Assembly (NCBI GenBank): GCA_964385975.1
Contig: CAYLSK010000001.1
Span: 1-43,501 of the forward strand
Reading direction: 5' to 3'
DNA from: an uncultured Anaerolineaceae bacterium
Lineage (GTDB): Bacteria; Chloroflexota; Limnocylindria; Limnocylindrales; CSP1-4
Length of the DNA: 43,501 nt
Shown here: positions 2,570 through 33,963 of the stretch, piece after piece
Layout of the letters: the number at the start of each line of letters is the position of its first letter
How positions within the stretch are numbered: position 1 is the stretch's first letter
Translations under genes and position numbers: made by a program
Notes under the pieces: model-generated
Told to the model about the DNA's origin: nothing
Databases searched by the model: none
Seen by the model: the letters and a program-made list of their open reading frames with translations, nothing else

Positions 2570-2603
2570 GGCACATCCGCCGCGTCGAACACCGCCAGCC
2601 TGG

Positions 2604-3202: not shown

Positions 3203-3384
3203 CAGATGTCCAACCTTTCTGACGTGACGGTCGGGACGTTCGCGCTGATGTCGCCGAGCTTCTCTGTGATGAGCTCGGCGAGGGCCGCATTCGTGGGCGG
3301 CTCCGGGGTCGGTTCGCCGTCCTCCAGATCGTCCGGCTCGCGCAGCGTGATCCTGACCAGATACGAAGCGATGATCTTGCCCAT
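3202..3384 (-). CDS. hypothetical small acidic protein (60 aa)
   Basis: ORF in the track, in chain with its neighbours. Confidence 0.5.
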   Translation of the reverse strand: MGKIIASYLVRITLREPDDLEDGEPTPEPPTNAALAELITEKLGDISANVPTVTSERLDI

Positions 3385-3398
3385 GATTGGTTCCTCCT

Positions 3399-3623
3399 TC
3401 AGTTGCTACGAACGAAGGCCGCGTTCGCCTCGGCGACGATCTCGAGGTAGTGATCGGATTGGGCCTTCTCTGGCTGGCTGTACGCTCGCAGGAAGGCATC
3501 GCCCCAGCACTTCTCGCAGAAACCGTTGCGGGCATGCCCCCGAGCCTCCAGGCGCTCGAGCACATCCGGCGACGGCTCGGGCAGGTCAAGATCCTTCGTG
3601 CGGAGTTCCTGCTCGGTCGGCAT
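3399..3623 (-). CDS. hypothetical protein (74 aa)
   Basis: ORF in the track with plausible composition (CEKCWGDAF motif). Confidence 0.5.
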   Translation of the reverse strand: MPTEQELRTKDLDLPEPSPDVLERLEARGHARNGFCEKCWGDAFLRAYSQPEKAQSDHYLEIVAEANAAFVRSN

Positions 3624-3626
3624 GGC

Positions 3627-4655: not shown

Positions 4656-4657
4656 CG

Positions 4658-5698: not shown

Positions 5699-5928
5699 TT
5701 TTTGTCGCCCCATGCGAACCTGGTCTGGGTGTCGCTCATCAGGGCACGCTGCGTCAGCCGATCGAGCTCCCGGGTGCAGTCGCCGCACTTGAACGCCACC
5801 GGATGGTCGAAACGCTCCTCGTGGCGTGGCGATCCGCACAGCGCGCGGACATGCTGACGACCGACTAGGAAGGCATGACCCTCGCCACCGGGCCCGGCAT
5901 GCCAGCGGGCATCAGGAGGCGGCTTCAT
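5695..5928 (-). CDS. hypothetical protein (77 aa, Cys/His-rich)
   Basis: ORF in the track, with the pattern CGSPRH...FKCGDC. Confidence 0.45.
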   Translation of the reverse strand: MKPPPDARWHAGPGGEGHAFLVGRQHVRALCGSPRHEERFDHPVAFKCGDCTRELDRLTQRALMSDTQTRFAWGDKK

Positions 5929-6134
5929 CAGCGGTTGCCGTCGAGCAGGCGCAACTCGCTCTCAGTGAGCCCGACGCCGTAGCGGACGAACGTCGCCAGT
6001 TGCCGCCGGCAGAGGCGGCAATCGGTCCGGGGCTCCCGGTCCGCATGGGCGCCGCGGCGGTGCGCCGCGACCGCCTGTCGGGCGGCATGGATGGTGACGG
6101 TACTCGGCGGGGCGGTCGCTGCATCGGTCGTCAT
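5928..6134 (-). CDS. hypothetical protein (68 aa)
   Basis: ORF in the track. I prefer the internal ATG (MTTDAAT...). The longest form starts at 6170. Confidence 0.4.
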   Translation of the reverse strand: MTTDAATAPPSTVTIHAARQAVAAHRRGAHADREPRTDCRLCRRQLATFVRYGVGLTESELRLLDGNR

Positions 6135-6198
6135 GTGCCGTTCTCCCACGTTGGTCCGCCGACCCTGCAACCATCTTCGACAGCAGGGCCGGCGGAAC

Positions 6199-6471
6199 CT
6201 ATGCCCCCGGCGGCTTGCCGGTAGACGAACCTCTCGGCTCGCCGGCGGAACCGTCTACACCGGACCTCGCCCCAACGTGGGGAAGGGTCGAGGTGGGAGA
6301 CGGCTCCGCTGGGGAGCGGAGCGGGCTTGGATGCTCAACGGCCACGAGCTCGGAGTAGGCGATGGCCTGGCGCGGCGTCGCCCAGCGCGGGCCGCAGTAG
6401 CGCTTGTCGAGGCCGGTTTCCGTCACGTAGCAACGGAAGGCACCGTCCACATGAGCGATCTGTACTGTCAC
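6199..6471 (-). CDS. hypothetical protein (90 aa)
   Basis: GTG at 6471 makes a GTGA overlap with the HNH stop. The N-terminal half looks real and the C-terminal tail is low complexity. Confidence 0.4.
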   Translation of the reverse strand: MTVQIAHVDGAFRCYVTETGLDKRYCGPRWATPRQAIAYSELVAVEHPSPLRSPAEPSPTSTLPHVGARSGVDGSAGEPRGSSTGKPPGA

Positions 6472-6938
6472 GACAGATGGCCCCACGACTTACCGTGGAC
6501 GATCGCGTAGATGCTTGATCGGCTGACGCCATACTCGTCGGCGAGGCGCGCCATGTTGTCTGGATGCCCGCGACCTGGCCGGAACCGCCTTCGGACATCG
6601 TGGACTTGCTGCGAAGTCAGCTTCGCGGTATGGCATCGCGCTCCGCGTACCGTTCGTTCCGGATGCGTCCAGCGGCCATTCCGTCCCTTCGCGGCGGAGT
6701 CGCGCTGGTTGTCGGTATTCGTTCCAAGGAAGAGATGGTCGGGTCGCAAACATGGCGGGTTGTCGCAGCGATGCAAAACCCACAAACCATCAGGAATGTC
6801 GCCAAAGGCCATGGTGTAGGACAGCCGATGCGTATAGCGCCGGCCGATCTGGCCGTAGCCCTTCGGGATCCGCCGACCAGTCCATTCCCAGCACGGTCCA
6901 AGTTCGGTGCCGTCGTGATTGATTTGGACCTGCGTCAT
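6468..6938 (-). CDS. HNH homing-type endonuclease
   Basis: HRCDNPPCLRPDHLFLGTNTDNQRD is the HNH_3-type core. A C-terminal HTH-like segment (LADEYGVSRSSIYAIV) follows. Confidence 0.75.
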   Translation of the reverse strand: MTQVQINHDGTELGPCWEWTGRRIPKGYGQIGRRYTHRLSYTMAFGDIPDGLWVLHRCDNPPCLRPDHLFLGTNTDNQRDSAAKGRNGRWTHPERTVRGARCHTAKLTSQQVHDVRRRFRPGRGHPDNMARLADEYGVSRSSIYAIVHGKSWGHLS

Positions 6939-7342
6939 GTCGTCGGCTCCGTCTCGGGATCAGCGGCGATCTCGGCGGCATGCTTCCGAGCGACGTGGCG
7001 GCTCAGCTGATAGACGTGCTCACCGCAGAATGGGCAGGCACCGGCGGCGGCGCGGTTGCGCAACTTTGTGGCCTGTCCCTTCCACGCCCGCCGGCTGGCT
7101 TCGGCTTGATCAGCTGCGGCGCGCGCGGCGGAAGCCCGGTCCTCGGCCTCCTTGTGCAATCGGCGATAACGGTTGGCTTCGCTTTCGGACCAGTTGACGT
7201 AGTGCCCGTTTGGGCAGCAGAACGAGCGGCCATCGTCCCAGCGTGCCCGGTAAAGGTCATTCGGGATGGCGAATGGGATGCCGCAATTGCCACAGCTGGT
7301 CACGGTCAACGTCGTCGAATAGACGTAGGTGCGCGTCGTCAC
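6935..7342 (-). CDS. zinc-finger protein (135 aa)
   Basis: CGNCG...CCPNGH...CPFCGEH motifs with a coiled-coil middle section. GTGA overlap at 7339-7342. Confidence 0.5.
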   Translation of the reverse strand: MTTRTYVYSTTLTVTSCGNCGIPFAIPNDLYRARWDDGRSFCCPNGHYVNWSESEANRYRRLHKEAEDRASAARAAADQAEASRRAWKGQATKLRNRAAAGACPFCGEHVYQLSRHVARKHAAEIAADPETEPTT

Positions 7343-7554
7343 GCCCGCTCCCCCGGCTCGACCAGCTCCAGGACGTCGCGCCGCCCGATCCAATCGCCTG
7401 GTGAGGCGCGTCGGTGCAGAGCCCGGATCTCGACGCCGATCACTGCCAGCCCATAGCGCACGTGGGCCACCACGGCCGCGTCGACGCCAGCCGCTTCGAG
7501 GTCGGCCAGCAGCCGGCGGGCGGTGACGATCGGTGGGGCGGCGAGGTCGGTCAT
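7339..7554 (-). CDS. hypothetical protein (71 aa)
   Basis: ORF in the track, with an ATGA overlap to the upstream gene. Confidence 0.45.
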   Translation of the reverse strand: MTDLAAPPIVTARRLLADLEAAGVDAAVVAHVRYGLAVIGVEIRALHRRASPGDWIGRRDVLELVEPGERA

Positions 7555-21725: not shown

Positions 21726-22073
21726 TCAGTGCTCATAGAGGAAGATCAGGCGGCCGGTGAGCGTGTCGCCGCCGCCCGCGATTGCGATCTGGATACGATC
21801 GAGGACCGGCATGGGGAGGCCGGCACCTGCGACGTCCACGCCGCCCGTCGTCTGGCCGAGCATCGTCGGCAGGTAGTCCTTGCTCGCCGCAACCGCGGCC
21901 ACGGACAGGAGCGTCTTGTTGCCGGGCTGCTCAGTGATCGCGATGTCGGGTGTCGACAACGTGCCGAGCTCGAAGCGGATCATGTGGAGCCGGCAGGGAC
22001 CGAGGCGGACCGTCGTCAGGTCCGTGCCATCGGCCGCCGTCACGATCGGGACGCTCTTGGTGAGCAGGCTCAC
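21726..22073 (-). CDS. head-associated structural protein (115 aa)
   Basis: ORF in the track, beta-rich, position after the capsid gene. Confidence 0.45.
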   Translation of the reverse strand: MSLLTKSVPIVTAADGTDLTTVRLGPCRLHMIRFELGTLSTPDIAITEQPGNKTLLSVAAVAASKDYLPTMLGQTTGGVDVAGAGLPMPVLDRIQIAIAGGGDTLTGRLIFLYEH

Positions 22074-22309
22074 GGCTCAGGCTCCGGCTCCGATTCGGGT
22101 GTTGGCTCGGGAGCGACCTCGGAATGCGGCGCCGAGACCGGCTCGGGCCTAGCGCCGAGCGGGGCGATCGGACGGAACAGGTGCTCGCGACCCCTGAGGA
22201 CAGGGTGACCAGCCGCGATGACTTGGCCGGCGGCGAAGAACTGATCGTTCTTGTAGAAGAACGGTGCGTTGACGATGAAGTACTCGGTACGGATTTTCTT
22301 CTCGGCCAT
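22070..22309 (-). CDS. hypothetical protein with Pro/Glu-rich tail (79 aa)
   Basis: ORF in the track. AAGGAG lies upstream of the ATG. Confidence 0.45.
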   Translation of the reverse strand: MAEKKIRTEYFIVNAPFFYKNDQFFAAGQVIAAGHPVLRGREHLFRPIAPLGARPEPVSAPHSEVAPEPTPESEPEPEP

Positions 22310-22335
22310 CGGATGCTCCTTTCAGAGACGTGACG

Positions 22336-22363
22336 CTGGGCCCGCCGCCCCGGGCGGGCCCAG
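22336..22363 (-). terminator. 11-bp GC stem-loop just after the capsid gene (partial terminator / mRNA stabiliser)
   Basis: ctgggcccgcc-gccccg-ggcgggcccag, with perfectly complementary arms. There is no strong U-tract. Confidence 0.45.
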
Positions 22364-22373
22364 TCGCCTAGCC

Positions 22374-23987
22374 TCAGTCGATCTCGAGCAGCCGGAAGGC
22401 GTTGAAGGCCAGGACCTTGGTGCCGTTGCGCCAGGCCGCGTAGATCGTCGTGCCGCCTGTCGGCCGTCCGCTGCCATCCCGGGTGTCCACGACCTTGGTC
22501 GTCAGGCCAAGCCGGTCCACGACGACGAAGCCCGTCTTGAAATCGCCGAAAAGCAGGACGTGCTTGGTGTCGGCCGTGGTGTCGTCCATGGCCGACGCTT
22601 CGTGGACCGGGTAGCCGCGAAGGGTGCCCGACTGCGCGTTGTAGATCGAGCCCGCATCCTGGCCGGCCGTGCCGAACGCCGGGACCTTCTGGAGGATCGC
22701 GTTGTTGGCGACGAAGCGCGACTTGGCGATACCGCGGAAGCGTGGCGGCAACGCGCCGATCAGCTTGTCGATGTCGGCGAGCAGGAAGGCGTCGTTGGTC
22801 GTGGTGAGCACGATGCTCGAGGTCTCGGCGATGATCGCGGCCACGATGCCTTCGGGCTCGTCGGTGCCGTCACCCAGGAAGAACTTGGTGGCCTCGAGGG
22901 TGTCTTTCGCGGTGGCGATCAGGGTGCCGACCTCGCCCAGGAGCGCGGCCGAGCCGTAGTCCTGCAGATACTCGAGCGTGATGTCGACCGACACGTCCGC
23001 GCGAACGGGCGTCACGGTCGGATCGTCGAGGTCGCTCGGGGCGCCGTCACTGGCTCCGGTGGTTGCCCGGGTCGCCTCGGAGACGTAAGCCGCCGTCACA
23101 CCCTCGGTGGTGATGGCCGACCAGGTCTTGGCGGTCGTGGTGGCGATCCGGCTAATCGCGCGAATCGGGTTCGCGGAACCGTCGCTGACGTCGATGAACG
23201 TCGGGTCGATCTCGGCCGGGATGGAGACCCCCCCGTCCGTCGCGCTGTAGCTCTGCATGACCGCGAGACGCTGACCGGTCAGGGCCCTTCCCCTGGCGTA
23301 GTCGGTCCAGGCGGCGACGTAGACCGGGTCGCTCGTGCCGATCACGTGCTGCGAAACCCAGCCGTAGTCATCGTTGCGATGCTTCGTGATCAGCTTCTCG
23401 AGCTGCGCTCGCACCTTGTCTGGATCGGACGCAGTCGGGAAGCTCATTTGCTCGATTGCCCGCATCGCTCCGTCGCGGTAGGCGGCCGGGAGGTCGTCGA
23501 TGCTCGTGACCCTCTGGCGGTAGGCCGCCAGGTCGTAGATGTTGTCAGGCGTGCGACGGACGTTCGGGGCTGCGAAGGAGGTCACAGGTCCCTCCGTTCG
23601 ACGGGCCTCGCCGCTGGCCGAGGCTGACTGGATCGCAGCCTCGCGGATCTCGAGCTCGTCGATGGTCGCGGTCACGCGAGCCAGGAGCCCGAGATTCTTC
23701 GGATCCTCGCTCGTGATTTCCTCGAACTCGACGCGCTGGGCGTCGTTGAACGAACTGCCGGCCGCCTCGTTGTGCAGCTCGGTCATCCGGGCGCGGAGCT
23801 CAGCCGCCGCCTGCCGATGGGCATCCAGACCTCGCAGGCCCTCGATGTCGAAACCACCGCTATAGCAAGCGATGCCGATCCCGGCCGGTGTGAAGGCACC
23901 GGCACCGATGCCGAATGGGCGATAGACGGCGAAGGCGGCGACCGCTCCCGCGTACCGCTCCACAGGAATGCGTCGAACGTCGTTCAC
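22374..23987 (-). CDS. major capsid protein, HK97 fold, with N-terminal delta/scaffold-like region
   Basis: Position after the protease. A coiled-coil delta-like segment is followed by a long beta/alpha capsid body. GTG 23987 forms a GTGA overlap with the protease stop. The longest ORF starts at 24017. Confidence 0.8.
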   Translation of the reverse strand: MNDVRRIPVERYAGAVAAFAVYRPFGIGAGAFTPAGIGIACYSGGFDIEGLRGLDAHRQAAAELRARMTELHNEAAGSSFNDAQRVEFEEITSEDPKNLGLLARVTATIDELEIREAAIQSASASGEARRTEGPVTSFAAPNVRRTPDNIYDLAAYRQRVTSIDDLPAAYRDGAMRAIEQMSFPTASDPDKVRAQLEKLITKHRNDDYGWVSQHVIGTSDPVYVAAWTDYARGRALTGQRLAVMQSYSATDGGVSIPAEIDPTFIDVSDGSANPIRAISRIATTTAKTWSAITTEGVTAAYVSEATRATTGASDGAPSDLDDPTVTPVRADVSVDITLEYLQDYGSAALLGEVGTLIATAKDTLEATKFFLGDGTDEPEGIVAAIIAETSSIVLTTTNDAFLLADIDKLIGALPPRFRGIAKSRFVANNAILQKVPAFGTAGQDAGSIYNAQSGTLRGYPVHEASAMDDTTADTKHVLLFGDFKTGFVVVDRLGLTTKVVDTRDGSGRPTGGTTIYAAWRNGTKVLAFNAFRLLEID

Positions 23988-25021
23988 CGTTTCTTCCCTT
24001 TCATGCGCTGATTCCAAGCCCGGTCGGGCTGGCTGATGGACATGGCGGCGACCGCTGCCCGGCCGTGGTCGGCCGGAATCGATGTCAGCGCCCCGCGAGA
24101 GGTTGGCTTGGCTGTGCGGCCGAGGCGGGCGACGGTTGCCTCGAGGGTGTCGATCCGGTCGACCATCCCGGCCGCGAGAGCCTGGCGGGCGAGCATCGTG
24201 CGGCCCTGCCCGTAGCTGCTGGCGACAATGCTCGACGTCACTCCGCGACCCTTGGCGACGTCGCCGAGGAACATCGCGTAGAACGTGTCGACCTGATCCT
24301 GGATGTTCGCCTTCGCCTCATCGGCGAGCGGCTCGAATGGGTTGCCCTCGGTCTTGTATCGACCGGCGCTGATGAGCGTGATCTTGATCCCGGCCATCTC
24401 GAGCGCGCCGCTGTCATCTTCATGCGCGGCGTATACGCCGATCGATCCGACCTCGCCCGATGGCGTCATGACGAGTTGGTCGACCGAGCACCCGATCCAG
24501 TAGGCGGCCGAGGCAGCCAGGGGGTTGACCACCGCGACGATCGGCTTCGTGCCACCGCGGATCCCCCGCAACTCGGTGGCGAACTCGGGGATGCCATCGA
24601 CGCTCCCGCCCGGCGACGAAATATCGAGGACGACCGAGGTGGCGGCTGGGTCGGCGAGCGCCTCTCGGATAGCGTTCCGAAGGTCATCGATGCTTGTACC
24701 GCCGAACAGCCAGCTCCAGAAGTCGGAGCGCTGGGTTATCAGACCGTAGACGGGGATCACGGCGGTCGGGCCGACCATCGCGCCGCCCATCCGCTCCATC
24801 CATGAGGACGCTGACATATCCGGCTTCGGCTTCGTCGGGGGTTCCATCGGCAGCGTCGACGCGTTGAGCATCATCGCTAGCCAGGAGCGGCGAATCGCCC
24901 ACGGACGCTCGGCGAGTGCGCTGCGGATAAGCGCTCGGGTCGGCGAGGCCGCAGGCTCGATGAGTTCGATCGGGTCGGGGTCGACGACGATCGGTTCCAG
25001 CACCGCAGTCACAGGATCCAT
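23984..25021 (-). CDS. prohead protease, S49 (SppA/ClpP-fold) family
   Basis: VVLDISSPGGSVDG…AASAAYWIGC…GSIGV motifs are typical of S49 peptidases. Confidence 0.8.
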   Translation of the reverse strand: MDPVTAVLEPIVVDPDPIELIEPAASPTRALIRSALAERPWAIRRSWLAMMLNASTLPMEPPTKPKPDMSASSWMERMGGAMVGPTAVIPVYGLITQRSDFWSWLFGGTSIDDLRNAIREALADPAATSVVLDISSPGGSVDGIPEFATELRGIRGGTKPIVAVVNPLAASAAYWIGCSVDQLVMTPSGEVGSIGVYAAHEDDSGALEMAGIKITLISAGRYKTEGNPFEPLADEAKANIQDQVDTFYAMFLGDVAKGRGVTSSIVASSYGQGRTMLARQALAAGMVDRIDTLEATVARLGRTAKPTSRGALTSIPADHGRAAVAAMSISQPDRAWNQRMKGKKR

Positions 25022-25037
25022 CGCCCCCTCAGCCTGC

Positions 25038-25124
25038 GGGGTGGCGGGGTATGCAGGTCAAGGGGTGGCGGGGTGTGCTAATTGGGTGGCGGAGGGGGTG
25101 GCGGAGGGGTGGCGGGGTGTGCTA
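25038..25124. repeat. five GG(G/T)GGCGG(G/A)G repeats in the intergenic spacer (G-rich on the template strand)
   Basis: Copies at 25038-25049, 25062-25073, 25084-25092, 25094-25104 and 25106-25117. ggcggggtgtgcta is duplicated at 25068-25080 and 25112-25124. Confidence 0.8.
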
Positions 25125-25679
25125 GTTCACGTGTCGCGAGGGGCTGTCCGATTCGTTCTCGGGCTTCATGACCTCGGCACGGATCGTCTCCATCTCGTGG
25201 ACGAACGAACCGACGACCGTCTCGGGCGTCTCAAAGATGATGTCCAGCTTGAGGATCTCGAAGCCCGCCGCTTCCAGCTGCTCACGGAACGAACGCGGTG
25301 ACCAGCCGCCCTTGTGCTGACCGCCGGCTGAGTTCGGCTCCCCGAAGAGTATCTGCAACGCATCGCTGCGACTCGGGCCGTGGAGCCAGTAGCGCGCCGC
25401 ATAGTCGAGGTTCGGGACCGCAATGATGGCCGGGGCGCCTGGCTTCAGCACGCGCAGCCATTCGGCCAATACGTCGGAGACCCGTTCCCATTCGATGTGC
25501 TCGAGGCAATGGCTCGCCCAAATCTCGTCAACGGAGTCTGTCTCGTACGGCAGCGTGCCGAGGTCGGCCTTGACGTCGGCTTCGGGCGCGTGAAGATCAA
25601 CCGTCGTGTAATCCGGCGCGACCCTGCCCGTTGAGGAGCCGAGATCGAGTTTGAGCGGGGCCAGCGTTTCGACGGTCAT
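25122..25679 (-). CDS. class I SAM-dependent methyltransferase (Methyltransf_11-like)
   Basis: LDLGSS…TVDL…LPYETDSVDEIWASHCLEHI…LRVLKPGAPAIIAVP shows motifs I, II and III in order. Confidence 0.65.
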   Translation of the reverse strand: MTVETLAPLKLDLGSSTGRVAPDYTTVDLHAPEADVKADLGTLPYETDSVDEIWASHCLEHIEWERVSDVLAEWLRVLKPGAPAIIAVPNLDYAARYWLHGPSRSDALQILFGEPNSAGGQHKGGWSPRSFREQLEAAGFEILKLDIIFETPETVVGSFVHEMETIRAEVMKPENESDSPSRHVN

Positions 25680-26308
25680 ATCATCTCCACCCGTGGGTCC
25701 GTGATCGGACGGTACTGCCGGAACTCGCCGTCGCCGTCGAGGTGCGTGAGCGGCAACAGGTCATGGAGCGAGATGTGCGTTCCGCGCCTCGCTACCTCGT
25801 AGATCGCGCCTTCCACCAGCCCCTTCGTGTAGCCCTCCTCCTTGACGTAATCCATCGCCCGGACCAGCAGCGAGGTCGCCATGAGCGTGCAACCCATCGC
25901 CTGGTAGTAGCCCGGCTTGCCATCGTGGAACGGGTAGGTATGGGTCACGAACGGCGAGGCGACATAGGCCGCCGCGTTGAGCAGGGTGTCGATCAGCAGG
26001 GGCGGTCCGATGATGTCCTGCTCGAGCGACAGGACCCAGCCGTACATGTGCTCGACGGCGTAATCCGTGATGACCTCCCAGGCGCGCGTGAAGGTGTGCT
26101 CGAACTCAGCCTCGGGCTCGATGTGACGGACGCCGACCCCGAACTCCTTGCTCATCCAGGCCGCGTACTTCCCTTCGTCGCCCGTGTTGTCCACGAGCAG
26201 CAGATCCCGGTTTGGATAGGCAAAGTCGTTGTACGCCTCGATGTAATGGACGAGGCAATAGCGCTTCCCTCGGTAGGTTGGCGCCGCCACGAGGACGCTA
26301 TCGACCAT
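25676..26308 (-). CDS. GT-A-fold (family 2-like) glycosyltransferase candidate (210 aa)
   Basis: VLVAAPTYRGKRY…LLLVDNTGDEG… and SLEQDI (a DxD-like motif). ATG 26308 lies inside the upstream gene's end. Confidence 0.5.
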   Translation of the reverse strand: MVDSVLVAAPTYRGKRYCLVHYIEAYNDFAYPNRDLLLVDNTGDEGKYAAWMSKEFGVGVRHIEPEAEFEHTFTRAWEVITDYAVEHMYGWVLSLEQDIIGPPLLIDTLLNAAAYVASPFVTHTYPFHDGKPGYYQAMGCTLMATSLLVRAMDYVKEEGYTKGLVEGAIYEVARRGTHISLHDLLPLTHLDGDGEFRQYRPITDPRVEMI

Positions 26309-26783
26309 TGCGCACCGCGTGAAGGAAGATGCCCGGGAGCAGCGCGTCCTCCTGGACCTCGATGACCTCGCAGCCCGCAAGCTCGGCCAACACGGGGCCG
26401 GAATCTGGCAGGAACCGCCACAGATCGCCGGGGTAGTCGTGAACGGAGCAGCCGTTGCCACGCGCCGTGATCAGCAGATGCCCGCCGTGTTTGAGGACGC
26501 GCCCCATCTCGGGTAGTGACAGCCAGGGCGCCGTGTCGTGTTCGAGCATCTCCGTGCTCACCACGACATCGAATGAGGCGTCTGCGAACGGCAGTTCGTG
26601 GGCATTCGCCACCTGATCCACACCCGGCCCGTCGCGCATGTCTACCCCGACGTACGGCCCGCTGAACCACTGGCGCACGCTGCCATTCACGTCGAGCGAA
26701 CCGACTTCCAACGTCGAGAGTCCCGCCAGCCCGTCGATCGCCACGGTATCGGCTACCCAGGAGTGAACGGACTCGTGCATCAC
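26298..26783 (-). CDS. class I SAM-dependent methyltransferase (161 aa)
   Basis: LEVGSLDVNG…VGVDM…FDVVVSTEMLEH…LKHGGHLLI. ATGA overlap with the fibre stop. Confidence 0.65.
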   Translation of the reverse strand: MMHESVHSWVADTVAIDGLAGLSTLEVGSLDVNGSVRQWFSGPYVGVDMRDGPGVDQVANAHELPFADASFDVVVSTEMLEHDTAPWLSLPEMGRVLKHGGHLLITARGNGCSVHDYPGDLWRFLPDSGPVLAELAGCEVIEVQEDALLPGIFLHAVRNGR

Positions 26784-29236
26784 GCCATCCGCTGGATGAA
26801 GGCAAGGGCGAAATACGGCTGCGCAGCCGCCATCGAGGCGATCGTCGGTTGCGTGATGCTGTGGTCGCTGAAAGCCGGCTGGGTGATCGCGTGGGCCGAG
26901 GGTTGGGTGACACCGTGGGCGCTGAACGCCGGTTGGGTGATCGAGTGTGCTGAGGGCTGCGTGATCGAGTGGGCGGAGAAAGCCGGCTGGGTGATCGAGT
27001 GAGCCGACACGACCGGCTGGGTCACGGCGTGGGCGGCGATCGCCACGGACGTCGAGAGGCTGTGGCTGGACAGGGCGACGCTCGTGGACAGGCTGTGGTC
27101 GCTGAAGGCGGGCTGGGTGATCGCGTGGGCGCTCACGACCGGTTGGGTGATCGCATGCGCTGAGACCACCGGCTGCGTGAGGGTGTGCGCCGAGACAACG
27201 GGCTGGGTGATCGCGTGGGCGCTCGGCTGAGTAATGGCGTGAGCAGACACGACGGGCTGCGTGAGGGTGTGCGCGGAGACCACGGGTTGAGTCACAGCGT
27301 GGGCGCTCGGCTGAGTGATGGCATGGGCGGAGACGACGGGCTGGGTGAGCGCGTGCGCCGAGACCACGGGTTGAGTCACAGCATGGGCCGATGGTTGGGT
27401 GATGGCGTGGGCGGAGACGACGGGCTGGGTGAGCGCGTGCGCCGAGACCACGGGTTGAGTCACGGCGTGCGCATCGGGTTGGGTGATCGCGTGTGCACTG
27501 ACAACAGGCTGTGTCAACGCGTGGGCGCTCACGACGGGTTGCGTCAATGTATGGGCACTGACGACAGGTTGGGTAAGAGCATGGGCCGACACGACGGGCT
27601 GGGTGAGAGCGTGGGCGGAGACGACGGGCTGGGTGAGCGTGACGGTGGTCGTGACGACCACGACTCGCGTGGTGCCCGATGCCGCGGAGGCAATCGTCGT
27701 AACGCTGGCACCGACATTCGTGGACAGGGTGTGCGCGCTGACCGCTACATTCGTCGAGAGAGCGTGAGCGTCGATCGCTACATTCGTGCTCAGGGCGTGC
27801 GCCGAGATCCCGACGCTGGTCGACAGCGCATGAGCGTCGATGGCCACACTCGTGCTCAGCGAGTGGGTTGAGACGGCTGCGCCCGCGTGCGCCGAGATAC
27901 CGACGTTCGTGGAAAGCGCATGAGCGTCAATCGCGACATTGGTCGAGAGGCTGTGCGTGCTGACAGCGGTTCCGCTATGGGCATCGATTGCGACGCTGGT
28001 CGACAGCGCGTGGGCGTCGATCGCCACATTGGTCGAGAGGCTGTGCGTGCTGACGGCGGCCCCGCTATGGGCGTCAATGGCGACATTGGTCGAGAGGGCG
28101 TGCGCGTCCACCGCGACGTTCGTTGACAACGAGTGGGTGCTGACGGCAGCCCCGCTGTGAGCGTCAATGGCGACATCCGTAGTCAGGGCATGGGCGTCGA
28201 TGCCGACGCTCGTTGACAGAGCGTGCGTGCTGATAGCCGCGTTGGTCGAGAGGGCATGCGCGTCGATGGCGACGGATGTCGAGAGGCTGTGGCTCGATAG
28301 GGCGGGCTGCGTGATCGAGTGATCCGAGAAGGCCGGCTGCGTGATCGAGTGAGCATCCAACGCCACATTGGTGGACAACGCGTGCGAGTCGATGGCGACG
28401 CTCGTGGACAGCGAGTGCGTGGAGACATCGGTACCCGAGTGCGCGTCGAGCGCCACGCTGGTCGAGAGGCTGTGCGCGGAGATGGCCGCGCCGCTGTGCG
28501 CATCGATCGCCACAGATGTCGAAAGGCTGTGGCTGCTGACGGCCGCGCCCGAAGCGGTGTGAGAGTGTGTGATCGAACCGCCGGAGATAGTGAGCGAGCC
28601 TGTCAGGTTCGTCTTGGCGAAACCTGCGTCGTCAGCCGAGGCGCCAACGATGAACATGTTGCGCAGATCGGGACCGGGTGCGTTCGCGGTGCCGTCGCAG
28701 AGCTGCCAGTCCGGGGCAGGGATGGCCGCGATGGTGCCGGACCACATGATGATCCCGCCGATCGGAACGGCTCCGCCACCGGTCAAGTCTTCCCAATCCG
28801 CATCGCCATCGGCGTCGGAGACTTTCGTCAATACTTGGCCCGTTGTGCCACCGTCAGGGATGCCGCTGCCGTCGGCGCCGGGCGGTCCGCTCGGGCCAGG
28901 TCCACCGTTCCCTCCATGTTGCCCAGGCTTACCGTCGGCGCCCTGCTTGGCGAGCAATTTCCACGACACGCCCGGAGGTCGCGCGCCGCTGGACGCTTCG
29001 GTGGCCACATATGAGCTGCCCTGGTATTCAACGACGTCGGGCGGCGCATAGTCTGCCGTTAGCCGCCACGGACCGCGCCAGATGAGACCGGGCTGGCCAT
29101 CCAAGCCATCTTGGCCGGGCTTGCCCTGCGGTCCCTGCTTGCCGGGGGGGCCCGTCGGACCCGGATCACCCTGCGCTCCACGAAGAAGCTCCGCGTGTTC
29201 CTCGGCCACGATCAGCGCCGCGGAGAGCTCATTCAC
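26780..29236 (-). CDS. 818-aa collagen-like / tail-collar-like fibre protein with a long His-initiated repeat array
   Basis: Two Gly-X-Y tracts (GAQGDPGPTGPPGKQGPQGKPGQDGLDGQPG and GADGKPGQHGGNGGPGPSGPPGADG). A collar-type motif GGIIMWSG…P..WQLCDGT…PDLRNMFIVG…GGSITHSHT. Then about 54 short His-led repeats. The GTG start overlaps the portal stop (GTGA 29233-29236). Confidence 0.75.
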   Translation of the reverse strand: MNELSAALIVAEEHAELLRGAQGDPGPTGPPGKQGPQGKPGQDGLDGQPGLIWRGPWRLTADYAPPDVVEYQGSSYVATEASSGARPPGVSWKLLAKQGADGKPGQHGGNGGPGPSGPPGADGSGIPDGGTTGQVLTKVSDADGDADWEDLTGGGAVPIGGIIMWSGTIAAIPAPDWQLCDGTANAPGPDLRNMFIVGASADDAGFAKTNLTGSLTISGGSITHSHTASGAAVSSHSLSTSVAIDAHSGAAISAHSLSTSVALDAHSGTDVSTHSLSTSVAIDSHALSTNVALDAHSITQPAFSDHSITQPALSSHSLSTSVAIDAHALSTNAAISTHALSTSVGIDAHALTTDVAIDAHSGAAVSTHSLSTNVAVDAHALSTNVAIDAHSGAAVSTHSLSTNVAIDAHALSTSVAIDAHSGTAVSTHSLSTNVAIDAHALSTNVGISAHAGAAVSTHSLSTSVAIDAHALSTSVGISAHALSTNVAIDAHALSTNVAVSAHTLSTNVGASVTTIASAASGTTRVVVVTTTVTLTQPVVSAHALTQPVVSAHALTQPVVSAHTLTQPVVSAHALTQPVVSAHAITQPDAHAVTQPVVSAHALTQPVVSAHAITQPSAHAVTQPVVSAHALTQPVVSAHAITQPSAHAVTQPVVSAHTLTQPVVSAHAITQPSAHAITQPVVSAHTLTQPVVSAHAITQPVVSAHAITQPAFSDHSLSTSVALSSHSLSTSVAIAAHAVTQPVVSAHSITQPAFSAHSITQPSAHSITQPAFSAHGVTQPSAHAITQPAFSDHSITQPTIASMAAAQPYFALAFIQRMA
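26840..28545. repeat. in-frame coding tandem repeats of 24, 30 and 33 nt (His-ladder array)
   Basis: Visible both in the DNA and in the translated ORF. The many antisense ORFs in this interval are repeat artefacts. Confidence 0.85.
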
Positions 29237-31455
29237 TCTAGGAGTTCCTCGTGCGTGCCGGTGATCTCGTTGGTCTCCGGGTCGCGATCGATCACGGTTC
29301 GCGTCGGGACATGCTCAACGATCCGAACCGCGCCCTCCGAGATGTGGACCTGAGCCGGTTCGACGGATCGCTCCGGGACGTTGACGGTCACAGCCGGTGA
29401 CGTGATGGCGCCCTGCGCGATCGTGACCGGAGCGCTGTGAACATCGACCTGGACAGCTCCAGGCTCGATCTTGGTGGGGGGGGTGTTCACCTCCACCTGA
29501 ACGGCGCCAGGAGCAATCGTGACGGGTGATGCGACCGTCGTGGACCGGCCCGCCAGTGCCACGAGGAGAGCCGCCTGGTCGCGTTGCACCTGCGCTTGGT
29601 ATCGTTGTTCCTCGGTCATCTCACTGAGCCGGCGGCGGATCGTGTCGCGCGAGACGGCCATTTCGGCCGCCAGCGTGTCGTAGCCAGCCGGCCGCCCGGC
29701 GGCCTCCAGCTCGGCCTTCTTCGCGAGGACCTCCTCCGTCGTCACGATTGGGGCCGGGCCCGCGCCGAGACGGCGAGCCGGCGAATCGACCGACACGGCG
29801 ACCTGACCAGTGCCGACGGGCGCGAACAGAGAGGGGTACAAGAGGACCATGGCGTCGTCGCCTGGGAGGATTGCGCCCTCGATGATCTCGGGCGATAGCG
29901 GGCCGCTGGCCGGCCAGAAACGGCGCGTCGCTCGGTAGTCAGACACGGTCGTTCCGGCAAGCGCGTCGCGGACGATCTCGATGTCCGTCGGCGTGGCCGG
30001 CGTCCAACCTTGACCGATCATCCTGCGCAGCCGGCCGGCGCTGAGGCTGAACTCCCGCGGCGCTGCCGTCCCTGCCGCGGGCAACGTATTACCGGGCGGC
30101 TGGAGCTGGACGCTGACGAGGCCGGTATGGACGAGTCGGGTGACATCACCCGAGCTGACATAGTCCACGACGCTCGCCGGTGTGAAGCCCTCGTTCACCA
30201 GGCGCCCGATCGTCTCCGAGTTCGCCTGCATGACGCTGGCCTGGTCGGTCACGTCGGCCTGGAGGAAGGGCACCGATCGTTGGTCGAACCAGAGTCGCGT
30301 CCCTCCCGTCGGCGCCGGGATGATCGTCTCGAGCGAGCCGCACATGTTCGGCCAGAGGTAGCGCAGTGTGATGTCGCTCGTGCTGCGTTTCGCGGCGCCG
30401 TAGTTCCCAGCGTTCATCGCTGAGCCAGCCATCCCCTCCGAGAACGGGATGATGACCGGGTGCATGCCGACGACCGCGGCCAGCCGCGTCTCCATGGTGC
30501 CGGCGAGGTCCTTGTAGGCCATGTCCTTGAAGTTGGTTCCGACGGGTGCGACGGTCATGCCGCCGCCCAGGTACATCGTCTTGAACGCGTTCGTCGCGCC
30601 CCTGTGCTTCTTCTCGAACTGCTCGAGCCAGCTCTTCGCTTTGGCCTCGTCCCAATTGGGCGGGAACGAGACCGCGAGATTGGGCGTCGCGGCGTTGCGC
30701 ATGAACGCCCGCTTGTAGCTCGTGGATCCGTTGTCCGCGAGGATCTCGGGCAACGCCGCGAGGATCAGCGGCATGCCCCGGTAGCGCGATAGGGGTCCTG
30801 TGTTCGGGTGGAAGTGGGCGACCTCCTCGCGACCGTAGGCGATGACAGCCTTGCCGGACCTCGGCCCTTCGGGCGTGTAGCCGAAGCCGATGATCTCAGC
30901 GTCAGGGTCCTGTGAAAGCTCGATCGGATCGCGCTTCTGCCGCGAGCCGAGCACGATGACCGTCCAGTCCGGCCGGAGCGGCTTGATCCGGTCGACGTTT
31001 CCATAGGGAAGGCTGGGCCCCTTGGGTCTGACCACGCTGGCGGGGCGCCGGACGCCGAACCAGTCGCCTGCGAGATCCGCGTATTGGATCGCCCGGAAGT
31101 TGAGATCGAGCGTCGTCTCGCCAGGCTCCGGATGCTCGAGCGGCGCGAGGTCGGGCGTCCCGAACAGGCCACCCTCGCGACCGCCGAACATCTGCTGAAA
31201 CTGATAGCGCGCCTGGGCGAAGAGCTTCCAACGCGTCTGCAGGGCCGAGAATACGACGCTGCTGCGGCCATAGACCGACGACAGGAACTCGAGCGTTGCC
31301 GGCGGCAGCTCCTCGTCACCGCGCAGCGTCGAGCCGCCGATGAACATCGGTCCGTCGATCGAGGTCATCACGGAGAGCCAATCTCCGAAAGTGAAGTCGC
31401 CCGAGCTTGCAAACCGGGACATGCTCCGGCGCGCCATGACCGCGAGAGGATTCAT
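29233..31455 (-). CDS. portal protein (HK97-family) with about 280-aa C-terminal extension
   Basis: Position after TerL. The first ~450 aa have portal-like length and composition. The extension has an HTH-like segment and short PGAVQV / PVTIA repeats. Confidence 0.75.
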   Translation of the reverse strand: MNPLAVMARRSMSRFASSGDFTFGDWLSVMTSIDGPMFIGGSTLRGDEELPPATLEFLSSVYGRSSVVFSALQTRWKLFAQARYQFQQMFGGREGGLFGTPDLAPLEHPEPGETTLDLNFRAIQYADLAGDWFGVRRPASVVRPKGPSLPYGNVDRIKPLRPDWTVIVLGSRQKRDPIELSQDPDAEIIGFGYTPEGPRSGKAVIAYGREEVAHFHPNTGPLSRYRGMPLILAALPEILADNGSTSYKRAFMRNAATPNLAVSFPPNWDEAKAKSWLEQFEKKHRGATNAFKTMYLGGGMTVAPVGTNFKDMAYKDLAGTMETRLAAVVGMHPVIIPFSEGMAGSAMNAGNYGAAKRSTSDITLRYLWPNMCGSLETIIPAPTGGTRLWFDQRSVPFLQADVTDQASVMQANSETIGRLVNEGFTPASVVDYVSSGDVTRLVHTGLVSVQLQPPGNTLPAAGTAAPREFSLSAGRLRRMIGQGWTPATPTDIEIVRDALAGTTVSDYRATRRFWPASGPLSPEIIEGAILPGDDAMVLLYPSLFAPVGTGQVAVSVDSPARRLGAGPAPIVTTEEVLAKKAELEAAGRPAGYDTLAAEMAVSRDTIRRRLSEMTEEQRYQAQVQRDQAALLVALAGRSTTVASPVTIAPGAVQVEVNTPPTKIEPGAVQVDVHSAPVTIAQGAITSPAVTVNVPERSVEPAQVHISEGAVRIVEHVPTRTVIDRDPETNEITGTHEELLE

Positions 31456-31576
31456 CGGGGCACTCCCAGGCCTACCCAGCCGACCGCGAGAGGATTCATC
31501 GGGGCACTCCCAGGCCTACCCAGCCGACCGCGAGAGGATTCATCGGGGCACTCCCAGGCCGACCCAGCCGACCGCG
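31437..31576. repeat. 44-bp direct repeat x3 plus an 8-bp partial fourth copy, spanning the portal start
   Basis: Units at 31437-31480 and 31481-31524 are identical. The unit at 31525-31568 has one mismatch. gaccgcga repeats again at 31569-31576. Confidence 0.9.
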
Positions 31577-31740
31577 ACGACGGCCAGACCGGCCAATACA
31601 AGGGCCGCAGGCACGAAGACCAGGCCGACCCCAATGACGACGAGCGCAGCGCCGGCGACGATCAGCGCGGTATAGGCGGTCGATGGTCGACGGATGCGCC
31701 GGAGGAACGGGCGGCGAGGCGTGCGGGCGGTCGTGACCAT
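31540..31740 (-). CDS. 66-aa two-TM membrane protein between TerL and portal
   Basis: Basic N-terminus followed by ALIVAGAALVVIGVGLVFVPAALVLAGLAVVAVGWVGLG. TGATG overlap with the TerL stop. Confidence 0.55.
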   Translation of the reverse strand: MVTTARTPRRPFLRRIRRPSTAYTALIVAGAALVVIGVGLVFVPAALVLAGLAVVAVGWVGLGVPR

Positions 31741-33509
31741 CAGTCGTCTCCACCGAAGAAGATGAACGGCTCGGCCATCGGCTCTTCGGGCTCGACCTCC
31801 GGTCCATTCGCCTCCGCGAACAATGCGTCACACCAGGCAGCGACGCCGTCGATGCGCTCGGAACTCTTCTCCTTCGAGGGCTTGATGTTGCCGGCGGCAT
31901 CCTCGTCCGCGGCGGCGTTCGCAACCATCCAGGCCAGGACCGGGTTGCCGTCGTAGTGGACGAGCCCCCCGGCGATGTCCGCCTCGAGCCGTTTCGCCGG
32001 TGCGGACAGCGAGGCGTAGCCCTGGCCGACCTCGACCACCTCGACGCCCTCGGACTGCAGCGCAGGCGTTAGCCAGGCCGTGTTCCAGCGATCGATCCCG
32101 ACACTCCAGATGTGCGCGCCCAGCGAGACGACATCAGCGACGACCTTCTCCTGGTCGACGCGGTTCCCCCCGGTCAATGTGATCCAGTCGTCGCGGGCCC
32201 AGACATCGTAGGGAACGTGGTCACGCTTGACCCGCGCCGGCATGTTCGCTGCGGGCAGCCAGAAGCGCGCCACGAGATCGTAGCATCGGCCGCCATGACC
32301 CTCGCCGGCGCAGGCGTCACGGTCGACCTTGAGGACGAAGGCGGTCAGGTCCATCGTCGACGATAGATCGAGCCCGCCCCAGCCCTTGCGGCCGGCGAGC
32401 TCGGCGGGCCCGCCGGCACAGGCGACGAACGTCACGACATCGAGCCACTTGCCCGAGCCCTCGGTCCAGATGCAGAAGCACATCCGCTTGACGACGTTCT
32501 GCTGGGCGGGCTTGCCGAGCGCCTCGCGGACCATCTCGCGTAGATAACGCGTCGACACCGAAACGCCGAGGTTCGGGTTGGCCTTGAGCCAGACGGATTC
32601 GTCTGTCCACTGGTCGCAATCGGGGCAGCCGTCGACCGGCGCCCCACCGCGGCGGTGCTCCTCGCAGGCATCGAGCCCGGCGACGAACGGGAACCAGGAG
32701 TCGTCCTGGCGGACACCCTCGAGGATTTCGATGCTGTACTGGTGGTCGGCCCAGCACACCGAGTGGCGATCGAACCCGCTGTTGGTGATCCGGAAGATCA
32801 GCGCGTCGCGCCAGCCCTTCGTGCCGGCCCGCATCGCGTCGATGACCTCGGACGACGGATGAGCGTGCTCTTCGTCGATGATGGCGATGTAGACGCGCTT
32901 ACCGTGGAGGTTCTTGGCCTCCGAGCTGACGTAGGTGAACGAGGATCCCTTCGGCCCGCTGAGCGAGTGCGCGAACATCCGGATCCGCTCGCGCAGCGGG
33001 CTCGACTTCGCGACCATGAGCCGCGCGTCGTTCCAGGCGATCGAGCTTTGGTCGCGACCTGCGGCCGCGCTGTAGATCTGGGCGCCGGAGCGGCCCTCGC
33101 CGACCATCCCGTACAGCCCGATGCCGGCGGCCATCGGCGTCTTGCCCGAGCCCTTCGCCGTCTCGGTGTAGGCGTTCCGGATCAGCCGGACATCGACGCC
33201 ATCTTCGTCGCGTGTGAACCAGCCGAACGTCGAGCCAACGATGAAGGCCTCCCAGCCCTGGAGCACGAACGGCTTACCCTCGAACTCGCCCTCGTGCAGT
33301 CGGAGGTAGCTAAAGAACCGAATCGCGCGACCGCCGGCCGCGGCATCGAACCAGATGTCCTCGCGCTCGAGCCAGCGTTCATGACGCTCGCACAGGAGGC
33401 GGACGTAGCGATTGGCGACGATCCGACCCGACAGGACGTCGGCAGCATAGGCATGGACAACGTCTGCCGCGATCTCATCGGCTGAACGGTCAAGCGCGGC
33501 GACGGCCAA
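31740..33509 (-). CDS. terL: terminase large subunit (Terminase_1-like)
   Basis: Walker A TAKGSGKTPMAAG, an IIDEEH-type Walker B, and a C-terminal nuclease half. 589 aa. Confidence 0.85.
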   Translation of the reverse strand: MAVAALDRSADEIAADVVHAYAADVLSGRIVANRYVRLLCERHERWLEREDIWFDAAAGGRAIRFFSYLRLHEGEFEGKPFVLQGWEAFIVGSTFGWFTRDEDGVDVRLIRNAYTETAKGSGKTPMAAGIGLYGMVGEGRSGAQIYSAAAGRDQSSIAWNDARLMVAKSSPLRERIRMFAHSLSGPKGSSFTYVSSEAKNLHGKRVYIAIIDEEHAHPSSEVIDAMRAGTKGWRDALIFRITNSGFDRHSVCWADHQYSIEILEGVRQDDSWFPFVAGLDACEEHRRGGAPVDGCPDCDQWTDESVWLKANPNLGVSVSTRYLREMVREALGKPAQQNVVKRMCFCIWTEGSGKWLDVVTFVACAGGPAELAGRKGWGGLDLSSTMDLTAFVLKVDRDACAGEGHGGRCYDLVARFWLPAANMPARVKRDHVPYDVWARDDWITLTGGNRVDQEKVVADVVSLGAHIWSVGIDRWNTAWLTPALQSEGVEVVEVGQGYASLSAPAKRLEADIAGGLVHYDGNPVLAWMVANAAADEDAAGNIKPSKEKSSERIDGVAAWCDALFAEANGPEVEPEEPMAEPFIFFGGDD

Positions 33510-33963
33510 AGAACTCCTCCTCCATCGGATCGGCGGTGGGCGGCGTGCCGGTCAATTCGGCGCGCGATCCCGGCGTCAGGCCAAGCTCCCGGGCGTAGGC
33601 GCGCATCAGGTCAGCGTTCGCTTGGACGATCATGTTCAGCGGGTTGCGCACGAGCTCACCGACGCGGGCGCCGCGGATCAGCGGCCCTGCCTGGTGCAGC
33701 CGTTCGGCCGCGTATTCATACCTCGCGACCGCCTCGCAGTAGACCCGCAGCGCGTCGCTGTCGAGTGCGGTGATGACGCCGGTGTCGCCGAAGTCGCGCA
33801 GGATCCGTCGCCAAATCTTTCGAGCGGGCTCAGCCATCGTGGCGGGCATCCGCGGCTGGTTCTGCTTCGGTTTCGGTTCATTGAGATTGAGCCGCTCGGC
33901 CCGCGTCTCGCCATGCAGCAGCTTGAGCGCGGTCGGCATCTTCGAGGGCCCGCGCTTACCCAC
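33490..33963 (-). CDS. terS: terminase small subunit (P27-family-like)
   Basis: N-terminus GKRGPSKMPTALKLLHGETRAERLN matches the typical P27 opening. GTG 33963 lies 5 nt after the upstream stop. An alternative ATG is at 33939. Confidence 0.65.
   Translation of the reverse strand: MGKRGPSKMPTALKLLHGETRAERLNLNEPKPKQNQPRMPATMAEPARKIWRRILRDFGDTGVITALDSDALRVYCEAVARYEYAAERLHQAGPLIRGARVGELVRNPLNMIVQANADLMRAYARELGLTPGSRAELTGTPPTADPMEEEFFGRRRA

Follow-up and report, generated by a model that had tools for sequence, protein, structure and literature searches.

The window analysed here, a 43,501-nt stretch of DNA from an uncultured Anaerolineaceae bacterium (contig CAYLSK010000001.1 of assembly GCA_964385975.1), carries a phage head module of the HK97 type in which a block of four genes is set between the portal and prohead protease genes. 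The block encodes a long fibre, a class I S-adenosylmethionine (SAM)-dependent methyltransferase (MT1), a small glycosyltransferase-like protein (GT) and a second class I SAM-dependent methyltransferase (MT2). Found again in about 30 further lineages of uncultured phages, the cassette of fibre and enzymes suggests an undescribed, self-contained route to sugar-coating a virion fibre. We give about an even chance to the reading in which the enzymes glycosylate and methylate the fibre encoded beside them, the genes forming a late-expressed, horizontally mobile cassette. Modification of the fibre is the best-supported inference, and we likewise infer its acceptor and its chemistry.

Linkage of the fibre, glycosyltransferase and methyltransferase genes

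Loci encoding relatives of the GT were collected from an IMG/VR scan with a GT profile (42 loci) and from exact look-ups (9 loci), and were annotated by open reading frame (ORF) calling and hidden Markov model (HMM) tagging; they carry L numbers below. The GTs form 37 clusters at 90% identity, 36 of them evaluable. In 29 of the 36, a collar-needle fibre gene lies immediately upstream of the GT gene, or is separated from it only by a methyltransferase (MT) gene, and the GT tracks this fibre type across phages of 45-73% GC. When the search was run from the fibre C-terminus, six new contigs were recovered: four have an adjoining GT gene, a fifth breaks off at the fibre and the sixth (L147) has no GT gene. 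Look-ups from fibre homologues further returned a fibre-MT-GT arrangement in a Limnohabitans metagenome-assembled genome (MAG) and a fibre-GT-MT arrangement on a podovirus-like contig. As a control, 80 generic tail-collar loci from cellular genomes were inspected, of which 79 are without repeats and GT, the exception (L082) having both. On the strength of this control, we discarded the notion that the GT goes with tail-collar proteins of any kind.

Three loci, L004, L151 and L002, have only a fibre-MT-GT-small ORF block in common, at 77-83% DNA identity, and their flanks are unrelated, showing that fibre-MT-GT is a cassette that moves between unrelated phage backbones. L082 is binned in an archaeal MAG (Bathyarchaeia) and L151 in a betaproteobacterial one (Limnohabitans), and high-GC contigs carry the cassette as well; unless the binning of L082 and L151 is unreliable, the cassette has a very broad host range. 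Gene fusions tie the enzymes to one another as well. Among ten multi-domain relatives examined from a representative search, six are MT-GT, GT-MT or MT-MT-GT proteins and one is a GT-GT protein; since MT-GT fusions exist, the two activities are likely to belong to one pathway. An MT2-type gene adjoins the GT gene in about 22 GT clusters and MT1 is seen in the window lineage only; the general unit is the fibre-GT-MT2 triad alone, with MT1 a lineage-specific member. The original prediction, made from the sequence of the window, had treated the four genes as a functional unit, and translational coupling, fibre-GT linkage, cassette mobility and the fusions all speak for it. The genes are also found together in relatives, all four in L010 and the fibre-GT core in the 29 clusters above.

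In the window, L006, L011, L014, L020, L030, L034, L038 and L144, the fibre gene has a portal gene directly or closely upstream; in L004, the portal gene is just downstream of the cassette. Elsewhere, the cassette occupies a peptidase/endolysin interval (L021), follows a gene for an internal-virion-protein-like product (L013) or Laminin-G-type proteins (L002, L151), or belongs to a podovirus-like genome (L152), and some fibre homologues have a T4 gp9/gp10-type N-terminus. Adjacency to a portal gene recurs in at least 10 lineages and is common without being universal, so that it does not discriminate between a tail fibre and a fibre of the neck or head.

These contexts bear on an explanation in which the enzymes modify other virion proteins, such as the capsid or tail tube, as in phages Che8 and Corndog, and the fibre is a passenger in a head-module hot spot. 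We regard this as unlikely. It would agree with the known targets of phage virion glycosylation, which are the capsid and the tail tube (PMC11600133, PMC12363180), with the GT gene remaining just downstream of the portal gene even in low-GC phages that have no such fibre, and with Pontimonas phage phiPsal1, where GT-MT-GT genes stand between capsid and neck genes without a fibre of this kind. A passenger would not be expected, however, to be immediately adjacent in 29 of 36 lineages, or to accompany the MT and GT genes into non-head contexts (endolysin, Laminin-G, podovirus-like), and generic collar proteins are found without the GT.

A predicted GT-A glycosyltransferase

The window GT has no match in Pfam, PHROG or NCBIfam, and the GT profile has none among PDB sequences. 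Only two of its 43 metagenomic homologues touch PF00535, with a best E-value of 9e-4. By AlphaFold2 (AF2), with an alignment of homologues, the protein was modelled at a predicted local distance difference test score (pLDDT) of 94 and a predicted template modelling score (pTM) of 0.91. Foldseek returned 543 PDB matches for this model at E<=1e-3, among them SpsA (1h7q) at E 4.8e-9 and a template modelling (TM) score of 0.61. The top PDB folds are all GT-A, namely SpsA, a Leptospira glycosyltransferase (6p61), the fucosyltransferase WrtF and the prophage enzyme TarP (E ~5e-9, TM 0.61-0.65), and the neighbours in BFVD are viral GT-A enzymes of phage and giant virus origin. On its predicted structure, the 210-aa protein is a glycosyltransferase of GT-A fold.

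Residues D40 (in LLVDN), E96 and D98 (in SLEQD) are invariant in the 43 GT sequences, and D191 is nearly so. The SLEQD segment appears to occupy the DxD position, with ExD in place of DxD. By an exhaustive profile search, 34, 432 and 987 representative clusters were matched at E-values of 1e-30, 1e-10 and 1e-3, respectively. No GT homologue was found by tblastn (E<=1e-3) among 50,697 deposited phage records, mycobacteriophages included, and scans of 185,579 species genomes (one per species) with GT patterns gave no confirmed match. The family is small and unnamed.

Two methyltransferases and a probable glycan-tailoring region

MT1 and MT2 are class I SAM-dependent methyltransferases, scoring 46.9 and 37.4 bits, respectively, against Methyltransf_11 (Pfam cut-off 21.2), with only 30% identity between them across 96 residues. 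The best PDB match of MT1, weak and limited to about 50 residues, is the D-glucose O-methyltransferase 6uv6 (E 3.6e-5); MT1 is also weakly similar to 3bus, called 'Methyltransferase' in the search output, which we take to be RebM. For MT2, the best NCBIfam match is the oligosaccharide methyltransferase MftM, again weak at 28 bits. Of 20 aligned sequences, which include 18 MT2-type homologues, 85% or more conserve LDxG (11-14) and VD (27-28), and SHxLEH and LxPGG are conserved as well. MT1 keeps GVD but has a degenerate motif I, LEVGS. Motif IV in its (D/N)PP(Y/F) form is absent from both proteins, and DNA (adenine) or Gln-N5 methyltransferases were rejected as identities on this ground. Neither a DNA-modifying nor a small-molecule-modifying family was matched with confidence by any of the enzymes, the hits being to generic class I SAM methyltransferases. 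The identities first proposed for the four proteins (fibre, SAM methyltransferase, GT-A-like protein, SAM methyltransferase) are thus supported by the HMM searches and the structure prediction.

The enzyme set differs in a relative. L009 has a GT 72% identical to that of the window, a matching protease (E 1e-105) and the same fibre-to-protease layout. Its interval 2340-7372 carries genes for a GT, an MT, a Rhamno_transf (rhamnosyltransferase-like) protein, a PS_pyruv_trans protein and a TagF-like Glyphos_transf protein together with three unknowns, and so fills the same slot with a far larger island, of glycan or teichoic type. The region gives the impression of an island for glycan tailoring whose content differs from one relative to the next.

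A mirrored needle in the fibre sequence

The original prediction described the fibre as a collagen-like and tail-collar-like repeat protein. Both the collagen and the collar parts are borne out, but the rest is not a plain repeat protein; it has the features of a mirrored needle of the gp12/gp37 type (segments in Table 1). At the N-terminus, the match to the tail fibre family phrog_5073 spans residues 19-130, which take in the collagen-like region, a region that most members of the fibre family do not have. The collar segment that follows is 59-82% identical to the collars of the family. A homologue with a full loop, L029, matches the T4 short tail fibre structures 1ocy/1pdi (E 1.5e-5), and PF07484 (Collar) is reached below threshold in short homologues (E 0.002-0.007). 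The protein ends with the collar closing element PYFALAFIQRMA, a version of which, PPYYALAFIMK, is found in generic tail-collar proteins from cellular genomes. Collar-needle fibres upstream of GTs range from 182 to 818 aa.

Between the two collar halves, the sequence parses into 56 His-initiated units, equivalent to 28 layers. The ascending arm is built of 11-mers (HxLSTxVAxxA, here L) and 8-mers (HSGAAVST, S), with two 10-mer HSITQP units at layers 8-9, and the descending arm of 10-mers (HxxTQPVVSA; all 10-mers of the HxITQP kind are coded Q) and 8-mers (HAITQPSA, q), with two 11-mer HSLSTS units at layers 8-9 from the C-terminus. From the collar outward, the units of the ascending arm follow one another as x L S L S L L Q Q L L L L S L L S L L S L L S L L L L L; those of the descending arm, taken in reverse order starting at the C-terminus, are Q Q q Q q Q Q L L Q Q Q Q q Q Q q Q Q q Q Q q Q Q Q Q Q. 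Each long unit has a long partner and each short unit a short one, and at layers 8-9 both arms show the swap, each carrying two 'foreign' units of the type that is usual on the other. The arms mirror each other exactly, at 27 of 27 comparable units, for which the probability under random ordering is about 1.6e-8 (one arrangement in 6.2e7). Exact mirrors with other patterns are found in the homologues L009 (29 layers), L011, L020 and L021, and in L024, L028 and L029 the two unit types are exchanged between the arms.

In the tip of T4 gp37, the chain doubles back at a distal head, forming a six-stranded needle in which seven Fe ions are held by His residues (PMC6957217, PMC12609058). Since the unit types and lengths of its two arms mirror exactly, the fibre chain of the window would double back in the same way. 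The turn would fall in the Ser/Thr-rich segment between the arms, VTTIASAASGTTRVVVVTTT, our candidate for both the distal head and the glycan acceptor; short homologues carry equivalent (A/G)RTS(T/S)AST tips in which the Thr residues are near-invariant. At the DNA level, the ascending arm has a period of 90 nt, an L-L-S triple (Tandem Repeats Finder (TRF), 90 nt x 3.0 at 27901-28174), and the descending arm one of 84 nt (TRF, 84 nt x 4.2 at 27140-27493). With these periods and matches of 80-84% between repeats, the repeats are old rather than an artefact of assembly. The repeat region consists of 20% Ala, 17% Ser, 12% Thr, 12% Val, 9% His and 5% Gln. Both arms carry a single His in every unit, and the needle base has an HSH in addition, at a place where an HxH is conserved.

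Proposed mechanism and points against it

We propose that the fibre is probably a trimer, with a short N-terminus, a collagen-like stalk, a collar of the gp12/gp37 type and a very long six-stranded needle. Each chain would run out along 28 His-initiated units, turn at the Ser/Thr-rich tip, return along 28 register-matched units and close the collar. With two His per chain in every layer, a trimer would present six inward-facing His per layer, and these layers could form a ladder of metal ions resembling that of T4 gp37, with its seven Fe sites, at about four times the length. The soluble GT-A enzyme, made from the same message, would act in the cytoplasm while the fibre assembles or earlier, moving a sugar onto it from a host nucleotide-sugar, with Ser/Thr residues in the tip or the repeat units as the likeliest acceptors. 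The transferred sugar would then be O-methylated by MT2, the general partner, and by MT1, a lineage-specific addition. Trimer formation, metal binding and the site at which the fibre attaches to the virion are all putative.

Several observations weigh against this proposal. No member of the GT family is characterised, and by sequence the GT reaches no curated glycosyltransferase model. Seven distant GT lineages have no fibre (five of low GC, in which the GT follows a ChaB-domain protein, together with L037 and L044), and the needle-like fibre of L147 has no GT, so the pairing of fibre and GT is not obligatory. As to the needle, a single His stands in each unit where T4 has an HxH motif, which makes metal binding a conjecture. 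An AF2 monomer model of a 221-aa fibre homologue (40 aligned sequences) failed, with a pLDDT of 56 and a pTM of 0.20; the needle model accordingly follows from the logic of the sequence. Finally, the fibre of L010 (1970-4342, 790 aa) is without one 28-aa Q-Q-q triple, on the descending arm only, and its mirror is broken. The three missing units could reflect a short-read collapse of the repeats or a real mismatch in register, in which case perfect pairing would not be required.

The genes of L009 raise a further point against fibre modification. TagF-like and pyruvyl-transferase proteins normally act on cell-wall polymers, and their presence fits an explanation in which GT and the methyltransferases modify a polymer of the host envelope (teichoic acid, arabinogalactan, lipopolysaccharide or capsule) during infection or lysogeny, masking the receptor and blocking superinfection in the manner of TarP or Gtr. 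The rhamnosyltransferase-like gene of L009 is, like these two, typical of wall-polymer synthesis, and TarP, a prophage-encoded GlcNAc-transferase of wall teichoic acid, is among the best structural matches of the GT. We nevertheless consider this explanation improbable. The genes are translationally coupled in a late structural operon and not placed in a lysogeny or moron position, and the GT follows a single fibre type across phages of 45-73% GC, hence of hosts with very different envelopes. The pattern scan of species genomes returned no relative, so the GT is not typical of integrated prophages, and it is a small, soluble protein without extra domains.

The gene directly behind a fibre gene frequently encodes its chaperone, and seven-beta-strand methyltransferases that methylate HxH motifs exist in eukaryotes. 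On this background, the GT-like protein could be an inactive chaperone for needle assembly and the methyltransferases could act on the fibre protein itself, at His, Gln or Lys. The extremely His- and Gln-rich composition of the fibre and the conserved HxH at the base of the needle would suit such a role, which we nonetheless think very unlikely. Invariance of D40, E96 and D98, and near-invariance of D191, would be unexpected in a pseudo-enzyme. The MT-GT and GT-GT fusions and the sugar-pathway genes of L009 point to glycan chemistry, both methyltransferases are without the amino-methyltransferase motif (D/N)PP(Y/F), and the best named matches of the methyltransferases, weak as they are, are sugar O-methyltransferases.

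Gene order and junctions

The fibre, MT1, GT and MT2 genes are co-directional, between the portal and S49 protease genes of a late operon that spans 22.3-33.5 kb on the minus strand (Table 1). By Pfam search, the HK97-type order is present, with PF03354/PF20441 (TerL), PF04860, PF01343 and PF05065. Gordonia phage Eyre and Mycobacterium phage Babsiella are the closest cultured relatives by portal; in the former, the portal gene is followed directly by the protease gene, and in the latter a single gene of 143 aa intervenes. As portal and protease are adjacent or nearly so in cultured relatives, the 4.1-kb block is an insertion in an otherwise canonical head module, confirming the four-gene insert as first proposed. 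An 11.5-kb region gave no match to deposited phages by megablast, and no second fibre-like gene was recognised in the window downstream of the tape measure.

Table 1. Genes of the late operon and segments of the fibre gene, in window positions
Feature	Positions	Strand	Basis
TerL (large terminase)	31740-33509	minus	PF03354/PF20441
Portal, 740 aa	29233-31455	minus	PF04860 E 2e-19; phrog_12
Fibre, 818 aa	26780-29236	minus	Pfam Collagen 27.8 bits (cut-off 27.2); phrog_5073 tail fibre E 6e-20
Fibre: two collagen-like G-X-Y runs (aa 20-52, 99-125) around a 46-aa W/Y-rich beta segment (aa 53-98)	28862-29179	minus	regular expression; Pfam Collagen 27.8 bits
Fibre: N-terminal part of tail collar, aa 157-223 (VPIGGIIMWSG...WQLCDG...PDLR...), short-loop variant	28568-28768	minus	74% mean column identity, 18 homologues
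Fibre: ascending needle arm, aa 224-511, His-initiated units	27704-28567	minus	unit parse
Fibre: putative needle tip/turn, aa 512-531, Ser/Thr-rich	27644-27703	minus	within the longest His-free unit of the parse
Fibre: descending needle arm, aa 532-791	26864-27643	minus	unit parse
Fibre: C-terminal closing element of collar, aa 792-818, ...QPYFALAFIQRMA	26783-26863	minus	conserved in all needle-fibre homologues
MT1, 160 aa, class I SAM-dependent methyltransferase	26298-26780	minus	Methyltransf_11 E 4.5e-12; phrog_32762 E 1.3e-20
GT-like protein, 210 aa from ATG 26308, predicted GT-A fold	25676-26308	minus	structure prediction
MT2, 185 aa, class I SAM-dependent methyltransferase	25122-25679	minus	Methyltransf_11 E 4e-9
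Spacer between MT2 and protease genes, 100 nt	25022-25121	minus	four copies of CCCCGCCACCCC
S49-family prohead protease, 345 aa, first gene past the cassette	23984-25021	minus	PF01343 E 8e-33; phrog_53 E 2.7e-79
Major capsid protein, HK97-type, 547 aa	22374-24017	minus	PF05065

The genes of the cassette are tightly joined. The portal stop overlaps the fibre start in a GTGA at 29236-29233, just as the original prediction had it. That prediction also placed an ATGA at 26780-26783, at the fibre stop and MT1 start; the overlap stands, but the sequence is GTGATG, in which the fibre stop TGA occupies 26782-26780 and MT1 starts either at ATG 26780-26778 (1-nt overlap) or at GTG 26783 (4-nt overlap). 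The 160-aa form of MT1, from the ATG, is an exact sequence on record in the protein collection. Overlaps were claimed for the other junctions too, which holds for MT1/GT (11 nt) and GT/MT2 (ATGA, 25679-25676) but not for MT2 and the protease, which are set apart by the spacer. For the GT, a 261-aa ORF from GTG 26461 was discarded in favour of ATG 26308, where the homologues begin; the 210-aa form is on record. A terminator scan gave no terminator-like site within 25122-29236, and promoter and terminator scans of 22000-33600 gave none inside the cassette, the sites being fewer than in shuffled sequences.

The copies of CCCCGCCACCCC, read on the minus strand, are confined to the spacer and occur nowhere else in the window, and the homology of the window to L010 stops just upstream of this spacer, at 25161. 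The spacer may be a recombination or regulatory site.

Relatives of the head module and the portal tail

The sample that yielded L010 also yielded a 1.2-kb fragment that is identical to the window. From portal to MT2, with all four genes of the insert included, L010 and the window have 94% DNA identity, after which the two diverge completely. L010 5961-8024 holds an 82-aa SAP-domain gene and a 560-aa Phage_capsid gene where the window, at 22374-25161, has the S49 protease and the 547-aa capsid. A sharp mosaic junction falls here within the head module.

The contigs L039-L050, viral and of 30-35% GC, have the order portal, a 78-aa gene, a ChaB-domain protein (226-255 aa), GT, more genes and capsid, without a collar fibre. 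The GT may have been tied to the slot behind the portal before it became tied to the fibre.

The portal core, residues ~40-460 only, is 36-39% identical to portals of Gordonia, Mycobacterium (Brujitavirus) and Rhodococcus phages. Its C-terminus is about 270 aa longer than in cultured relatives (29233-30050, aa ~470-740) and ends in (A/E)PxxVxV repeats and an acidic ...RDxxxxxIT..EE tail. A similar tail is present on the portals of L006, L011, L020, L030 and L038, each directly or closely upstream of a needle fibre, and is missing from those of Eyre, Babsiella, L004 and L144. By tblastn, the C-terminal repeat tail had no match among deposited phages.

Comparison with known systems

The closest structural precedent is T4 gp37/gp12, with which the fibre shares a homologous collar (1ocy at E 1.5e-5, for the full-loop member), an out-turn-return path proposed for the chain and recurrent His in the needle. 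The needle here has 28 layers, whereas T4 has seven Fe sites; the units of both arms contain a single His in place of an HxH motif, and the needle is made of regular pairs of 11/10-residue and 8/8-residue units. A tiny Ser/Thr tip takes the place of the head domain, a collagen-like stalk is present, and the gene stands behind a portal gene and is paired with a glycosyltransferase gene rather than with chaperones of the gp38/gp57 type.

In the mycobacteriophages Che8, Corndog and Myrna, O-methyltransferase and glycosyltransferase genes serve to modify capsid and tail tube (Freeman et al. 2023, cited in PMC11600133 and PMC12363180). In common with what is proposed here, phage-encoded glycosyltransferases and an O-methyltransferase act on the phage's own virion proteins, in actinobacterial hosts. 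The GT is unrelated to enzymes of the Che8 gp110 and Corndog gp38 type, the tblastn search of the 50,697 phage records having returned no match, the known targets there are capsid and tail tube and not a dedicated fibre, and the genes do not form a mobile, fibre-linked cassette. A viral GT-A enzyme combined with a SAM methyltransferase that acts on the sugar just added has a parallel in PBCV-1, whose GT-GT-MT protein A064R methylates the terminal rhamnose of the Vp54 capsid glycan (PMC7826918). The MT-GT fusions described above strengthen this likeness, but PBCV-1 is a eukaryotic giant virus with N-linked capsid glycans, and no sequence relationship is detectable.

Pairs made of a surface protein and a private enzyme are familiar from bacteria. 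The adhesins AIDA-I, TibA and HMW1 are each encoded beside a dedicated glycosyltransferase gene (Aah, TibC and HMW1C, respectively), so that a repeat-built surface adhesin has its own cytoplasmic glycosyltransferase to decorate the repeats; these enzymes have other folds (heptosyltransferase, GT41), and the pairs are bacterial and have no methyltransferase. BclA of Bacillus and the fibrils of Mimivirus are collagen-like glycosylated surface fibres and, like the system proposed here, combine a collagen-like stalk with methylated sugars on a surface filament, but BclA has a C1q-like distal domain and the collagen region is the acceptor there. TarP and Gtr are phage-encoded GT-A enzymes, TarP being a top structural match of the GT; they differ in targeting host wall polymers, in being expressed from lysogeny or moron positions and in having no link to a fibre gene.

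A similar gene order is found in Podoviridae sp. ctKR88 (L156, MW202524.1), where positions 3145-6783 encode a 598-aa repeat protein rich in Ser, Thr, Gly and Asn, an MT1-like methyltransferase, a GT2-like protein and a second methyltransferase, with three more glycosyltransferase genes upstream. The order is that of the window, but fibre and GT are non-homologous. By hhalign, the GT family has no significant relationship to the GT2-like genes of ctKR88 and phiPsal1 (probability 6-10%), and these loci are therefore analogues and not homologues. In literature searches, no account of a glycosyltransferase linked to a collar-needle fibre was found. Glycosylation of phage virions and needles of the gp37 type are both already known.

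Significance

Taken at its widest, the cassette would be the first self-contained fibre-glycosylation system of a tailed phage: a mobile unit that combines a metal-stapled, gp37-like needle of 3-29 mirrored layers with a private GT-A enzyme and sugar methyltransferases. Its enzyme set would be swapped or extended between relatives, as in L009, much like an O-antigen locus, giving a variable glycan coat to a receptor-binding or neck fibre. We advance this tentatively, as somewhat short of an even chance.

Whatever the enzymes do, the fibres form a natural series of gp37-type needles of 3-29 layers with strictly mirrored arms. Because each added layer needs matched insertions in two distant parts of the gene, they offer a clean model for the growth of interdigitated repeat proteins, and the needle fibre is a possible scaffold of programmable length.

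If the enzymes do act on the fibre, a new and so far unnamed glycosyltransferase family with a likely protein acceptor would be defined, and the three-gene unit would be a portable means of probing what glycans do for a fibre in adsorption, in shielding from proteases and antibodies, and in environmental stability. Virion glycosylation would then extend to fibres and to many groups of uncultured phages, from 45 to 73% GC and with both siphovirus-like and podovirus-like backbones.

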